Below, piece after piece: positions 30,402 to 37,204 of a stretch of DNA of 64,000 nucleotides. Source of the stretch: a virus (lineage: Duplodnaviria; Heunggongvirae; Uroviricota; Caudoviricetes); IMG/VR virus record IMGVR_UViG_3300027710_000009, one strand, 5' to 3'. Every line of letters begins with the position of its first letter. Within the stretch, counting starts at the first letter, position 1. A program made the position numbers and the translations under genes. The notes below the pieces were generated by a model. The model made no database searches. It had not been told where the DNA came from and saw only the letters and a program-made list of their open reading frames with translations.

Positions 30402-30504
30402 ATAATTAGTGCTAGATTGTTTACTGCACAACCTAGCAAAGCAGGGGTCTGTAGACTGCATACAACTTGTCTCATTGTACTCCGTATGCAAGGGAGAGAT
30501 TGAA

Positions 30505-30722
30505 TTTGAGAGCCTACGCCGCGTTTATCGTAGATTTATTCAGGACTTACCGGCCGCCTAGCCTGACCTCGCTCGCGATGGATATCACTTGGGCGCCTGT
30601 CCAGTTAGCAACCAATCTGCACCGCTCTTCCGAGCAGCCGGGAGTTGAACCCGTCCCCTTTTACTATTTTGGTAGTTCGAACTTACCTAGATAGCGTGAC
30701 TGCGCTTGCTGACACTCTCAAA
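30505..30722 (-). ncRNA. Structured ~218-nt ncRNA, family unassigned
   Basis: Closing stem TTTGAGAG/CTCTCAAA, T-loop-like GGGTTCAACTCCC, GNRA hairpin GCTC-GGAA-GAGC. Confidence 0.65.
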
Positions 30723-31306: not shown

Positions 31307-31528
31307 TTATTTGTCGCGAACTTTCTTCAAATATTCGCGACCTACTTTACCTTGTTCAATTTCTTCAAGCACTTGAATAATAGGACCATTTGTTGATACA
31401 ACTTTTGATCTATGTCCAGCTTTGATTTCTCTTAGTCTAGCTGATGCAATCAACACTAGGTCAAATTGATTACCTATCATTTGTGCTGCCTCTTGTGATG
31501 TTCTACCAGTGATGTATTCGTCGGACAT
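31307..31528 (-). CDS. rpoZ: RNA polymerase omega subunit homolog
   Basis: IGNQFDLVLIASARLREI...VLEEIEQG matches the omega core GNRFDLVLVAARRARQ...ALREIEEG. Confidence 0.85.
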   Translation of the reverse strand: MSDEYITGRTSQEAAQMIGNQFDLVLIASARLREIKAGHRSKVVSTNGPIIQVLEEIEQGKVGREYLKKVRDK

Positions 31529-31661: not shown

Positions 31662-31823
31662 ACCATATGGAAACACACTAGTGAGCCAGTCTAACGCAGC
31701 CATCGCAACTTTGCAAGTCGTTTCCAACTTGTGTATCGTCTTTCTGGGCGAGCTGTATGTGTAGAGCTCCGCAAGTTCTCAATGCAATCGCTTGCAAGGA
31801 CAACTAGTATGTTTTCATATGGT
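31662..31823 (-). repeat. Stem-bracketed cassette A
   Basis: ACCATATGAAAACATACTAGT...ACTAGTGTGTTTCCATATGGT. Confidence 0.85.
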
Positions 31824-31895
31824 AGAAGCAGTGGGACTCGAACCCACAACTATCCGGTTAAAAGCCGGGTACTCTAGCCATTGAGTTATGCTTCC
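31820..31895 (-). tRNA. tRNA-Lys(TTT)
   Basis: Loop CTTTTAA. Confidence 0.92.
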
Positions 31896-31898
31896 ATA

Positions 31899-31974
31899 TG
31901 GTCCCTGCGGTCAGGCTCGAACTGACGACCAGCGGATTAAGAGTCCGTTGCGCTACCAACTGCGCCACACAGGG
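31899..31974 (-). tRNA. tRNA-Lys(CTT)
   Basis: Loop CTCTTAA. Confidence 0.9.
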
Positions 31975-31997
31975 TTGTACGTATTGTTTGATTTTAC

Positions 31998-32067
31998 GTG
32001 CCAACCCTAGACCATACGGATGCCTAGAGCGACACTAGAGTTTACCTCGTTTCATGTCAATCTCCTT
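31998..32067 (-). other. Minigene MKRGKL* (32035..32055) with SD and a hairpin starting at its stop codon
   Basis: AAGGAG-6nt-ATG AAA CGA GGT AAA CTC TAG, then a ~14-bp hairpin. Confidence 0.55.
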
Positions 32068-32079
32068 GATTAAATAAAA

Positions 32080-32272
32080 TGCTCTGCGAACCCCGGTGGT
32101 AATTATACCGTATCAGACCTTTGGAGTCATCACGCACGGCCTCCACCCACTTCCCGACGGGTTCCGTTGTCGCATTGCCAGCGGCCTTTCGGTAGGAAGA
32201 CTACCACCCTTGGCTATCACACCACTTCTCATCGTGCGGGTCACACTATCTGCTGATTAGGCAGAACGTTCT
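32080..32272 (-). ncRNA. Structured ~190-nt ncRNA, family unassigned
   Basis: GC-rich, ORF-free; hairpins TCTGC-CTAATCA-GCAGA and CC-GAAA-GG; long-range pairs CGCACG/CGTGCG and GGTGGTAG/TTACCACC. Confidence 0.65.
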
Positions 32273-32331
32273 AGCTACAGGACACTTGTGTTGTTTAAGC
32301 CTGAGCACGGATGCAAGGCTCCTCTAAAAAT

Positions 32332-32406
32332 TGGCGGTGCCAAGGGGTAACGATCCCCTTCTTCGAGCGTGACAGGCTCGTGTGCGTCCATGAACACTTT
32401 GGCACC
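32332..32406 (-). tRNA. tRNA-Asp(GTC), variant T loop
   Basis: Loop CTGTCAC; T loop ATCGTTA. Confidence 0.88.
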
Positions 32407-32412
32407 TAAAAA

Positions 32413-32488
32413 TGGTACACGGTACGGGAATCGAACCCGTCTTACTAACGTGAAAGGCTAGTGTCCTAAACCGATAGACGAACCGTGC
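32413..32488 (-). tRNA. tRNA-Glu(TTC)
   Basis: Loop CTTTCAC. Confidence 0.9.
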
Positions 32489-32493
32489 ATAAA

Positions 32494-32578
32494 TGGTGGA
32501 GGTGGCTGGACTTGAACCAACAATGCACAAGGGCGGCGGATTTACAGTCCACTGGGGATACCATTTTCCTACACCTCC
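32494..32578 (-). tRNA. tRNA-Tyr(GTA)
   Basis: Loop CTGTAAA, long variable arm. Confidence 0.9.
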
Positions 32579-32586
32579 AAATTTTT

Positions 32587-32720
32587 ACCATATAGAAACA
32601 CACTCGGCTCCCCTTACAACCTTGTTCCTGTCAATTCAGGATGCACCTGGAATGAACCCAGCGGATCTCCTTGGTTGTTTGTATCTGTCAATTCAGATTG
32701 AAAATGTGTTCTTATATAAT
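32587..32720 (-). repeat. Stem-bracketed cassette B
   Basis: ATTATATAAGAACACATTT...GAGTGTGTTTCTATATGGT, pairing through several G-U. Confidence 0.8.
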
Positions 32721-32804
32721 ACCATATAGAAACACACTGGCTGTTGCTTGTCATTGTCTTTAACTACCTCTCGGTGGCGGTAGACCAGTGTGTTTTTATA
32801 TGGT
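32721..32804 (-). repeat. Stem-bracketed cassette C
   Basis: ACCATATAAAAACACACTGGT...GCCAGTGTGTTTCTATATGGT. Confidence 0.85.
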
Positions 32805-33688
32805 GGAGGACTGAGAATACATCTCTCCCATAAGCACCTCAAGCATTATTGTACACCTTGCGAGCGTACTTTCTCTTGACTTCCACTCGGGTCCTTGCGG
32901 ATCTCCTAGTCTGCTTACAGTATCGCCGTTTTTAACGTCAAGCAGTAGACGTGTCATCATATGCTATTCTGCGGATTCCATTCCGTTAGCCTTGCGAGCT
33001 ATTCAGGTGCGCTAACACCTTACGAACCCCCCTCCACAAACTAATGTCACCTTGCGAGCTTCATTAGACTTGATTCACTTGCGTGTCAAGTATTAGATAC
33101 TTTTCACATATGACCGAGGCAGTCTTTGCGTTTTTGTAATGATAGTTGGGATTTGAACCCGACTGCATCCAGCTTAAAAGGCTAGCGTTCAACCATTGAA
33201 CTTTATCAACCTACCGTGATGAGCTACCTCTGTTGCTATATAATCTTTTGGACTACATAATACAACTCACCACATACCTTTCCTCTTGCGGAGTAATCAG
33301 TGATGTTTCACGACCAGTGTCCTGCTTCAAAACAGTCCACCACCCATTAACATTGCACACGAGCCCTTGGGTGCAACCCCTCGAACCAATATACTACCCT
33401 TTCTCATACCTGTTGACAAGTTGGTTTTGTATGGAAGTCAGCACCACCTGTTACTTTTCATGCACCCTGGTTCCCTTACGGGCCAGTCGATACACATTCT
33501 TCCCCATACACTTGCTTCACAGTTACAACCACCGGTCTTATCAGTGATCGCTACCTTGCGATAGTGAGCAGGCTTGTTTACATGAACCATCTCTGGCGCA
33601 GGAGTGTAGGACTCATCTGCTTTGGGTAGGTCACCCTACTTATTCTTCGTAGACGGCAAGCCGCCTACAGGACAATAAACTGCCCCGA
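32805..33688 (-). ncRNA. GOLLD-like giant ncRNA (~880 nt) with an embedded tRNA-like domain
   Basis: No - strand ORF, about seven GCAA tetraloop hairpins, located in a phage tRNA cluster; size and context fit GOLLD. Confidence 0.72.
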
Positions 33689-33690
33689 AA

Positions 33691-33817
33691 CTTTATTTGT
33701 TCTGCCATCTGCACTATATGCCTCGCTCAACAGCTTTACTCGAGTTTACTGTTTATTGCTTTGGTTACATAACGCTTGATCTTGCCTCTGTGCTTACAGA
33801 AGGCAGAACAAATAAAG
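33691..33817 (-). repeat. Stem-bracketed cassette F (stem sequence unrelated to A-D)
   Basis: Perfect 16-bp inverted repeat CTTTATTTGTTCTGCC/GGCAGAACAAATAAAG. Confidence 0.8.
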
Positions 33818-33818
33818 C

Positions 33819-34031
33819 CCATATCAAAACATACTACAGGAACTCCACTTACCTCACAGGACCGTCTCCTGCTACTTCCGTTTCGTCATTACAGTCTAAC
33901 ATACTCCACCGTGTCATACTTGGGTTTCCCCTCAACTTTCATGTGACTTGCACAGAGCCAGTCCGTCAACTGGTTATCCTCAGTGCAAGCACCTAGTGGT
34001 GTTAGCAACCTCTAATACATTTAGATATGGT
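33819..34031 (-). repeat. Stem-bracketed cassette D
   Basis: ACCATATCTAAATGTATTA...TAGTATGTTTTGATATGG with G-U pairs. Confidence 0.8.
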
Positions 34032-34104
34032 GCCCAAGGAGAGACTCGAACTCTCAAAATTTGGCTTCTAAGACCAACACGTATACCAATTCCGTCACCT
34101 GGGC
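34028..34104 (-). tRNA. tRNA-Leu(TAG), short variable loop
   Basis: Loop CTTAGAA, 77 nt. Confidence 0.85.
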
Positions 34105-34119
34105 ATTGCTTTTTAACGA

Positions 34120-34131
34120 TGTTAAAGAACA
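34120..34131 (-). promoter_or_regulatory. boxA-like Nus antitermination site
   Basis: TGTTCTTTAACA versus rrn boxA TGCTCTTTAACA. Confidence 0.7.
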
Positions 34132-34165
34132 TTTGTTCGTCTGCAAACGATGTTGCAGTTGGGTT

Positions 34166-34194
34166 AGTGTAACTGCAATTTGCATTGCTGTCAA
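34166..34194 (-). promoter_or_regulatory. sigma70 promoter P2 of the RNA array
   Basis: TTGACA-17nt-TACACT. Confidence 0.75.
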
Positions 34195-34267
34195 CTAATT
34201 TTTCTACTGTGTTGCAAAACAACAACAGCACCCTTGTTAGCAACACGATGTTTGCTACAGTTTCACA

Positions 34268-34296
34268 AGTATATGTGATCCTGGCATTGCTGTCAA
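34268..34296 (-). promoter_or_regulatory. sigma70 promoter P1 of the RNA array
   Basis: TTGACA-17nt-TATACT. Confidence 0.8.
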
Positions 34297-34391
34297 CTGC
34301 TTTTTTAACATGTTGCAAAAATACTACACTGGTTGTTGACTTTGCAACACTTACAGATTCACAGTCGGTAAGTCATGTTCGTCCAATGTAG

Positions 34392-34455
34392 GTATCAAAG
34401 CACTCTTCATGGATGAACCCACTTGTCCCCTCGCGGGTAGAGAATGCTTTGATAC
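34392..34455 (-). repeat. Stem-bracketed cassette E
   Basis: GTATCAAAGCATTCT/AGAGTGCTTTGATAC, 15 bp. Confidence 0.75.
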
Positions 34456-34577
34456 GTTACCATTTTACCATCTGCGTTTCCACCACAGACTTCTCATCCG
34501 GTAAGCCGCCCACATTAATAGCCGATGTTTTGAGTGCCAGCAGGGTCGCGTTCCCTATACACACTTTTCATGATCCT

Positions 34578-34639: not shown

Positions 34640-34780
34640 TTAACTGTGCGAGTCTCCTGGACCCTTGGTGCCTGGTAGTGTGCGATCATTACTAATCTCA
34701 GTCGCAGACCACAAGGCCACTGGCATAAATGAATATGCTTGGCTATGCTGTTTGCAGTTGAGAACGAATGTCGGTTTCAT
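34640..34780 (-). CDS. 46-aa leader peptide MKPTFVLNCKQHSQAYSFMPVALWSATEISNDRTLPGTKGPGDSHS
   Basis: AAAGGA upstream; lies between a promoter and a terminator; contains the antiterminator arm. Confidence 0.7.
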   Translation of the reverse strand: MKPTFVLNCKQHSQAYSFMPVALWSATEISNDRTLPGTKGPGDSHS

Positions 34781-34834
34781 TTTGTTTCTTTTTCCTTTGA
34801 TACTCAGTACATTATTGCACTGTGTAAGTCTTGT

Positions 34835-34863
34835 ATTGTAGAGATATTTAGCAATGCTGTCAA
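34835..34863 (-). promoter_or_regulatory. sigma70 promoter with nested TAAATA motif
   Basis: TTGACA-gcattgcTAAATAtctc-TACAAT. Confidence 0.8.
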
Positions 34864-35869: not shown

Positions 35870-37204
35870 TCATCTAGCACGTGGAAACACGGGTCTCTGT
35901 GCAGATGGTGCTGGTGTTGCCGCTGTTTGCGCTGATGGCGCCATGGTTCGTGCTGGTATTGCAACCGGAGCTGGTGCTGTTGCATCAGGTTCTGATTTTT
36001 TGGTTTTAGGAAACATTTTGTAAACCATTTTACCAATTTTGGCTGGATCGGTCCCTTTGGTGTATTCTTGTGCAATCATATTAGTTATGTTGGCAATAGA
36101 TTGCGGATCCGACACACCTCGCTCATAGGCCATTTCTTTGGCTGCTGCCTGAGCAATGGTCATAATTTTTTGTTTAGATAACTTTTGCCCAGTTTGTGGC
36201 AAAGATTTGGCCACGTCAAAACGTCCAGCACGTATAGACGCACCCGGTGCTAGTTCCACTTGCGGCATCATTTCTGCTTCTGGTGCCAGAATGTAAGCAG
36301 TTTTCACGCTGATCTGGCCTTCCATGTCGTCAAAGTCTTTGAAGTATTGTACTTGTTCTGTGGGCAGGTCCATGATCAACATGCCTTCAAATTGACTGTA
36401 CTTTTTGTAGTTATTATAACCAACCCTGGCAATGGCACGTAGGATGGAGTTTTCATCACCGTCCATGAGTGCTTTTTGATATTCACCATTGGGCACATGA
36501 TTGAATGTGCCGTCTGCAATGGCTTTACAAACTGTTTTTAAGTTCTTGGGATTGATTCTTGGACGAATAGTGTTTACCCAGTTGTCCAAACCCACACGAT
36601 CACCAATTTTTACAAGGCGGCCTGCTGAGTTTGCAATAGCACTACGAATACCTGTTAGATCTAAGTTGGCTTTGCGGGCATTGATCCAGCGGCCACCTTT
36701 GGCTGCACGTGCTTTGACTTCAACTGGCATCTTGTTAACGATAATATCGCCGCCGCCTTTGATACGGCCACTCCAGGCAATGTTGGGATGTAGTACTGCC
36801 AGTGCCACCTCGCACGGACCCACACCTTGCGCAGTTAATTCTGTTGATAAATCTTTGAATAACTCTTTACCAAATCCTGTGCCAATTACGTCGTCAAATG
36901 AATGCAACGATCCGTCTAACAGTTTACCTACATCGATTCCGTTGCCGTTTTTTACAAGCTCTAGGAAAGCATCTTTTTCTTCAATTGGAGCATCAATGTC
37001 AATGATTGAACGTGCGATCTTTGATAGAAACACACTGGCGTCAGCATCTTTGCCCAGCACTGATTTGATGCGTTCTTCAATGTTTCCTGCTTTGAGCGTT
37101 CGCAAGACTTTTTGCAGAACAGATGGATCATCGGTGGATTTTACCACTGCGATAATCTCTTTCTTAAGTGCAGGATCTTCTAGTACCAGGTCTGTATAGC
37201 GCAT
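35870..37204 (-). CDS. Hypothetical protein, possible PD-(D/E)XK nuclease fold
   Basis: G.CE....GGGDIIV....VEVK motif; upstream TAAATA. Confidence 0.55.
   Translation of the reverse strand: MRYTDLVLEDPALKKEIIAVVKSTDDPSVLQKVLRTLKAGNIEERIKSVLGKDADASVFLSKIARSIIDIDAPIEEKDAFLELVKNGNGIDVGKLLDGSLHSFDDVIGTGFGKELFKDLSTELTAQGVGPCEVALAVLHPNIAWSGRIKGGGDIIVNKMPVEVKARAAKGGRWINARKANLDLTGIRSAIANSAGRLVKIGDRVGLDNWVNTIRPRINPKNLKTVCKAIADGTFNHVPNGEYQKALMDGDENSILRAIARVGYNNYKKYSQFEGMLIMDLPTEQVQYFKDFDDMEGQISVKTAYILAPEAEMMPQVELAPGASIRAGRFDVAKSLPQTGQKLSKQKIMTIAQAAAKEMAYERGVSDPQSIANITNMIAQEYTKGTDPAKIGKMVYKMFPKTKKSEPDATAPAPVAIPARTMAPSAQTAATPAPSAQRPVFPRAR

Follow-up and report, generated by a model that had tools for sequence, protein, structure and literature searches.

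The DNA analysed here is a stretch of 64,000 nucleotides (nt), hereafter the window, from the virus record IMGVR_UViG_3300027710_000009 (Caudoviricetes). It comes from a large tailed phage and holds genes for a terminase, a tail sheath, a gp32-like and a RecA-like protein; the terminase is 54% identical to that of Pseudomonas phage PA5oct. The minus strand carries 33 transfer RNA (tRNA) genes and one GOLLD RNA, and among these lie four short cassettes, A to D, each consisting of a variable interior (the cargo) closed by one related stem, together with two elements of similar build, E and F. Read along the minus strand, a promoter match at 34863 is followed by a short open reading frame (ORF) with a terminator-like hairpin, a conserved RNA, E and two promoter matches. 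Then come tRNA-Leu, D, F, GOLLD, C, B and the tRNAs for Tyr, Glu and Asp, and the order ends with a conserved non-coding stretch, two tRNA-Lys genes, A and tRNA-Ile. The cassettes and the RNAs that they adjoin are as follows.

31662-31823, minus strand: cassette A, standard stem with a 126-nt structured cargo; the 5' arm overlaps the ACCA of tRNA-Lys(UUU)
32587-32720, minus strand: cassette B, standard stem with a 98-nt cargo holding two copies of a CUGAAUUGACAG hairpin; abuts C
32721-32804, minus strand: cassette C, standard stem with a 48-nt cargo; the 5' arm overlaps the ACCA that ends GOLLD
33818-34031, minus strand: cassette D, standard stem with U.U at pair 9 and a 178-nt cargo; the 5' arm overlaps the ACCA of tRNA-Leu(UAG)
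33688-33820, minus strand: F, a conserved cargo enclosed by a long stem whose sequence varies and is unrelated to the standard one
34389-34458, minus strand: E, 15-bp variant of the standard stem with pair 9 paired and a conserved small cargo; no upstream CCA
31820-31895, minus strand: tRNA-Lys(UUU), partner upstream of A
34028-34104, minus strand: tRNA-Leu(UAG), partner upstream of D
32801-33685, minus strand: GOLLD RNA, Rfam match at 32808-33273; 5' boundary approximate

The closing stems of A to D measure 18-21 base pairs (bp) on the minus strand, and interior lengths were taken between 18-bp arms. A first-pass annotation had proposed that one related stem on the tRNA strand closes all four, and pair tables, a scan of the whole window and shuffled controls bear this out. 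Pairs 2-19 are all formed in the four stems except pair 9, which, as first described, is A.C in A, B and C and U.U in D; pair 1 of D is A.G. Consensus-like stems in the whole-window scan comprised only A-D and cross-pairings among their arms, and the arm pattern matched seven times in the window, six of them inside cassettes, against 1.8 expected from shuffles of all 64 kb. The boundaries first drawn for A, B and C were retained, and D was found to be one base longer, its low-coordinate end lying at 33818. The last 4 nt of tRNA-Lys(UUU) and of tRNA-Leu(UAG) are shared with the 5' arms of A and D, and B runs into C without a spacer. An alternative stem is also possible, formed by the C 5' arm and the B 3' arm and enclosing both cargos (32587-32804, minus strand). 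An exact 16-nt match to the C arm at 37024-37039, inside in-frame coding sequence of the ORF at 35870-37204, is probably due to chance.

E and F had been grouped with the four, and each fits in part. The 15-bp stem of E is a variant of the standard one, its pair 9 being a regular A-U; F shares the architecture of a long stem (21-24 bp) around a conserved cargo, and its stem sequence is of another kind. The cargo of F recurs elsewhere in different stems, several of which begin on an upstream CCA, and in a close relative F is missing, with 10 nt in its place (RNA-run contigs X1 and X2, see below). Folding z-scores were -2.8 for B, -6.5 for C, -5.2 for E and -4.7 for F.

A stem family with exchangeable cargos

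The wider family was collected by three pattern scans of IMG/VR, with overlapping sets of an estimated 460, 400 and 700 stretches; cassette and cargo-family counts refer to the matches listed and are hence minimum values. From 384 loci, overlapping loci included and ribosomal RNA (rRNA) loci dropped, 768 stems were extracted, which gave at least 490 distinct cassettes after identical and nested stems had been merged. A genome collection gave nine matches, five of them on short tRNA-bearing contigs of metagenome-assembled genomes that are probably phage, and four without tRNAs, which were dropped. Three queries of 50,697 records of cultured phages gave no real match to the family, and it was not found in the tRNA regions of Variovorax V45v66 or Xanthomonas BUDD. 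A stem was called from at least 15 of 18 pairs together with arm likeness, so high pairing is partly built in and the pattern across positions is not.

Among 483 cassettes, pairs 2-8 and 10-18 were paired in 95-100% (97-100% for pairs 10-18) and pair 19 in 85%. The sole weak position was pair 9, paired in 54% (G-C 198, A.C 173, A-U 43, U.U 20). The mismatch seen in A-D had been taken for a mark of the family; it occurs in only 46%, and pair 9 is a weak spot of the stem rather than a family signature. Pairs 7-9 showed two dominant classes, UUG/CAA (171) and UAA/CUA (142). Outside pair 9, G-U outnumbered A.C on the tRNA strand by 714 to 53, and by 290 to 32 in the subset of 181 cassettes without a match to any scan pattern. 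This excess indicates that selection acts on RNA, and the stem covaries, in agreement with the earlier proposal of a covarying stem with strand-biased G-U pairs.

It is the tRNA strand that folds into the stem, whose arms extend into the 3' end of the RNA upstream and often into the beginning of the tRNA that follows. The start lies within the last 3-4 nt of a tRNA for 213 of the 490 cassettes (Lys-UUU 94, Glu-UUC 33, Gln-UUG 18, Leu-UAG 16); at the other end 92 reach into the next tRNA, and for 98 the upstream tRNA is absent from the locus. Placement of the 5' arm on an upstream ACCA was thus correctly noted for A, C and D, but is not essential to the family. The same holds at GOLLD: a cassette immediately follows each of the ten distinct GOLLD 3' ends found, that of the window among them, and two of the ten end in CCA, so that homologs without CCA carry a cassette in the same place. 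In the related locus L084 (1-618), five cassettes with five different cargos follow one another head to tail at 1-nt spacing. Group I introns were observed in cassette-bearing tRNA regions of related phages (L172 4765-4958, L335 239-474, L272 459-654).

Interiors range from 4 to 204 nt across the family, and the 483 of at least 20 nt formed at least 277 BLAST families, 185 of them singletons; the Chao1 estimate is about 650 families and is sensitive to the clustering cut-off. Cargos are conserved one by one and are found in different slots. The 91 Lys(UUU) slots hold 75 cargo families and the 23 Lys-Met slots 21; of 92 multi-member families, 30 occur directly behind at least two different tRNA types. 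Elsewhere, cargo B recurs at 97-99% identity immediately after the 3' end of a tRNA (Lys(UUU) in L074), and cargo C is letter-identical in six other contexts, behind tRNA-Lys or GOLLD, the arms differing in one case. Near-identical cargos therefore occupy different slots among relatives, and the interchangeability first suggested for them is upheld. When both 150-nt flanks were 85% alike, which was so for only three pairs, too few to bear on exchange, the cargo was the same in all three. Used alone as a query, the motif of cargo A gave 14 matches, 13 inside the standard stem and one unrelated, and that of cargo D, a large cargo with many invariant blocks, gave 13 matches, all inside the same stem type. 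For cargo A, 32 pairs were predicted, with 99.5% of cells paired and compensatory change in 10 of the 32, values biased in favour of the structure, since it was derived from the alignment used for scoring.

The strongest motif shared among cargos was the tRNA T-loop, which mostly lies 4-7 nt ahead of the 3' arm; 25 of 277 representatives carry it, compared with 0.4 in shuffles. A tRNA T-arm occurs in 23 of the 277 families (8%). No enrichment of CsrA-type or TTGACA motifs was detected in the cargos. Small-peptide genes were rejected, with a Shine-Dalgarno site plus ATG in 22 of 483 against 36 when shuffled, as was a mini-array or repeat-like anti-CRISPR RNA of CRISPR (clustered regularly interspaced short palindromic repeats) type, given the spread of interior lengths and the absence of an Rfam CRISPR match. 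Mimicry of rRNA looked promising by eye (17 matches of at least 11 nt against 9 shuffled) and was likewise rejected, as 11 and 15 of 277 beat 19 shuffles with about 14 expected; in a k-mer test z was at most 1.4, and a few single cases are possible.

Predicted release by RNase III and competing explanations

A processing signal of ribonuclease III (RNase III) type had been suggested, and judged by its sequence the stem fits most of the rules for the E. coli enzyme. No RNase III domain was found in seven related phage records, and the enzyme would therefore be the host's. As set out in the accessible part of PMC1540722, an E. coli site combines a helix of 11 bp with a distal box (UA/UG) and a proximal box of 4 bp; a G-C pair adjoining the cut suppresses cleavage without blocking binding of RNase III. 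We used the numbering given there, with an inferred placement of the distal box: the cut then falls just before pair 9, the A-U pairs demanded by the rules correspond to pairs 10 and 11 (proximal positions 3 and 2), and pairs 17-18 form the distal box. The stems of A-D, at 18-21 bp, are long enough to leave 11 bp or more beyond the predicted cut. In this register pair 18 is U-A in 461 of 483 cassettes and pair 17 is U.G in 334, and U.G is preferred to C-G at pair 17 (334:112), in keeping with the distal-box rule. Pair 11 is A-U in 479 and pair 10 in 444, pair 15 is C-G in 371, and pair 9 in A-D avoids the cleavage-suppressing G-C.

RNase III would thus quite probably make a staggered cut near pairs 7-9, the best register being between pairs 8 and 9 on the 5' arm, plus or minus one. 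The weak outer 6-8 bp would come apart after the cut; a trailer of about 4 nt would remain on the upstream tRNA or GOLLD and a short leader on the downstream tRNA, and the cargo would keep an 11-bp closing helix, for predicted RNAs of 148 (A), 120 (B), 70 (C) and 200 nt (D). Pair 1 falls on the discriminator base of the tRNA; the stem could therefore be stacked on the acceptor helix, which might supply the missing outer half-site. Cargos would be exchanged when phages recombine within the arms and tRNA flanks that they share. Given release, we see roughly even chances that the cargos would act by shape on host defence or RNA-handling proteins.

For coverage by RNA we used eight freshwater RNA runs of 24 listed, as assembled contigs only and without a DNA control. 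GOLLD was covered in all eight by long contigs, and D of a close relative in six. Contigs restricted to D, with both ends inside the arms, occurred in four runs (X3 and X8, 33828-34009; X5, 33847-34007; X6, 33837-34001); three runs shared a contig end at 34009, which lies 14 nt inward of the predicted 5' end, and no D contig in the eight runs bridged to tRNA-Leu. This gives a weak hint that D exists as a discrete RNA. A was covered once, at low depth and together with tRNA-Lys, and B and C had no cover; the low cover of A-C carries no weight either way.

We assign a probability of about 0.5 to the reading that A-D belong to a widespread phage family of RNA cassettes in which a standard stem allows host RNase III to release an exchangeable RNA and the cargos likely serve as protein decoys or binders; this value weighs the release step more than the decoy step. 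High diversity, exchange between slots, conservation at the level of structure and the T-arm subset would fit protein-binding decoys. In the part of PMC11555353 at hand, the tRNA-rich region of phage T5 counters retrons via a tRNA and an ORF, and the stable RNAs are given no role.

Several observations weigh against release and a decoy role. Cleavage of the stem is a prediction, RNA ends not being seen in assembled contigs, and D was joined to GOLLD in one contig in X1 and X2. The processing rules applied are those of E. coli. Proximal position 1, a G-C in E. coli sites, is pair 12 here, with A-U in 318, G.U in 102 and G-C in only 52 of 483 cassettes, and 198 cassettes have G-C and 6 have C-G at pair 9, G-C being a catalytic antideterminant of E. 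coli RNase III in the chosen register. At pair 12, and in the G-C class at pair 9, the suggested processing signal departs from the rules. The placement of the distal box is itself inferred, and the annotated ends of T5 RNA III match the register only approximately. Seven of the 490 cassettes are nearly empty of cargo, and A-F hold no T-arm. Neither a target nor a ligand was found for the cargos, and no Rfam match fell inside the cassettes of the window or of 40 loci covering 114 of the 277 families, overlap being judged by coordinates and by eye. The longest complementarity of cargos to window genes was 9-12 nt, as in shuffles; antisense action on the phage's own genes in the window was rejected on the same ground.

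It is also conceivable, if unlikely, that the cassettes are cut out as proposed and the cargos do other jobs, as base-pairing regulators, catalytic or ligand-binding RNAs, or partners of a GOLLD cage. The size and invariant blocks of cargo D would suit such a role, and the cassette behind all ten GOLLD ends would suit a partner of GOLLD, which the available part of bioRxiv 2024.12.08.627333 describes as an empty nanocage and proposed holder of other molecules. The Rfam and complementarity results speak against these jobs, and the compensatory change in cargo A points to shape over a pairing seed.

We consider it rather improbable that the stems stay uncut and act in cis, holding the upstream CCA and the start of the downstream tRNA while the cargo or a bound phage protein times maturation of tRNA and GOLLD. 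The overlap of cassettes with upstream tRNA ends (213 of 490) and next-tRNA starts (92 of 490) and the joined D-GOLLD contigs are in line with this, and, by the accessible part of PMC1540722, the G-C class at pair 9 may bind RNase III uncut. However, many cassettes lie in tandem runs away from tRNAs (five in L084), cargos move between slots, and the T5 analogues are annotated as separate stable RNAs.

That the stem is a maturation signal for tRNA and GOLLD only, with neutral filler inside, is very unlikely. The nearly empty cassettes and the weak mean folding z of the cargos (-0.48) are what it would predict, but cargo C stays identical in its six other contexts although arms vary, cargo A covaries, and cargos A and D were found solely inside such stems, bar the one unrelated A-motif match; conservation of the cargos largely refutes it. 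Finally, the cassettes can hardly be miniature inverted-repeat transposable elements (MITEs) with terminal inverted repeats: inverted arms, variable interiors and the presence or absence of F between relatives resemble such elements, but the strand bias of the G-U pairs refutes this for the family, the arms overlap tRNA ends, and the target duplication that the first-pass annotation had associated with MITEs was not found, 378 of 485 cassettes sharing no flanking base against 381 in controls.

Beyond release by RNase III, a bolder picture can be drawn, though we regard it as doubtful: freshwater phages might keep a plug-in library of several hundred folded RNA decoys, held in standard RNase III-cleavable frames at tRNA ends and swapped in an arms race with host defence. 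If true, this library would be the RNA counterpart of anti-defence gene islands, and if the cargos are decoys, phage counter-defence by RNA would be far larger than now known. Because the stem can be searched for, it also shows where hundreds of natural structured RNAs, so far undescribed, begin and end, and it hints at how GOLLD obtains its 3' end. Through the stem family, the role of the 'stable RNAs' of T4 and T5 becomes testable in bulk.

Other features of the tRNA region

Further features near the cassettes are listed here.

34296-34268 and 34194-34166, minus strand: two sigma-70-type promoter matches ahead of Leu-D-F-GOLLD-C-B-Tyr...Lys-A, predicted by consensus scan
33137-33210, minus strand: tRNA within GOLLD, an Rfam match not called by ARAGORN

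GOLLD matched RF02032 with 198.2 bits against an Rfam gathering score of 150, and its internal tRNA has, by eye, the anticodon UUU. Upstream of E, the segment 34462-34863 (minus strand) contains the promoter match, a 46-codon ORF at 34642-34782 (by eye), the terminator-like hairpin at 34616-34585 and the conserved RNA at 34462-34575. The hairpin, the conserved RNA and E keep the same order in several relatives, and the segment is possibly an attenuator or antitermination leader of the tRNA operon.

Two intervals of the minus strand are conserved and non-coding and gave no Rfam match. One, at 30403-30720 between tRNA-Pro and tRNA-Arg, had 57 BLAST matches in the fetched loci and looks tRNA-like at one end; the other, at 31976-32330 between tRNA-Asp and tRNA-Lys, had 98 and terminates in a Shine-Dalgarno-like site with a six-codon ORF (by eye). 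A gene for an omega-subunit-like protein of RNA polymerase (PF01192) lies within the tRNA array at 31307-31528 (minus strand) and has 26 metagenomic relatives. Assignment of a host through this protein was rejected as too weak, the nearest relative being from Ralstonia at 41% (plasmid collection).

Comparison with known systems

No description of the stem family was found in the literature searched, which held few subscription journals and no old papers on T4 or T5 RNAs. Arrays and RNase III go unmentioned in the accessible part of PMC10690425, which screened IMG/VR for structured RNAs; a search of its supplements other than files 1, 2 and 4, which may hold single cargos, turned up none of six arm motifs.

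RNase III stems such as the minimal E. coli substrate uR1.1, described in the accessible part of PMC1540722, and those flanking 16S rRNA are also long AU-rich helices that close a structured RNA. The cassettes share with them distal-box-like UA/UG pairs and A-U at proximal positions 2 and 3. Unlike them, the cassettes have only 6-8 bp outside the predicted cut, in overlap with tRNA ends, and, against the substrate rules, most have A-U at proximal position 1 and 41% have G-C at position 4. A copy of host rRNA stems was rejected as the origin of the cassette stem, the best of eight Burkholderiales operons showing 6 mismatches in 18.

Phage T4 likewise has small RNAs without a known role in its tRNA region, RNAC and RNAD (species 1 and 2; available parts of PMC3014915 and PMC12685909). 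RNAC has a T-arm, as do 8% of the cargo families here. The two T4 RNAs are fixed genes, and a long enclosing stem was looked for around them and not found. The architecture also resembles that of bacterial Y RNAs (YrlA), which combine a constant closing stem with a variable, partly tRNA-like module. Identity with Y RNAs was rejected, since the cassettes gave no match to RF02553 and five related phage records held no TROVE/Ro60 gene.

The closest known RNAs are RNAIII, RNAIV and RNA2H of T5 (misc_RNA in AY543070.1), which like the cassettes lie in a phage tRNA region and have no known function. Their enclosing stems of 17-21 bp extend beyond the annotated ends, which are staggered, with 3' overhangs of 2 (RNAIII), 1 (RNAIV) and 3 nt (2H). 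RNAIII starts 4 nt after the CCA of the upstream RNA, and RNAIV begins on an A.C mismatch. Homology between the cargos and the T5 RNAs is limited to short matches, mostly T-arms, and the T5 stems are unlike one another and unlike the cassette consensus (13-15 mismatches in 18 on the RNA strand). The T5 stems differ RNA by RNA, whereas in the cassettes a single standard stem encloses no fewer than 277 cargo families.

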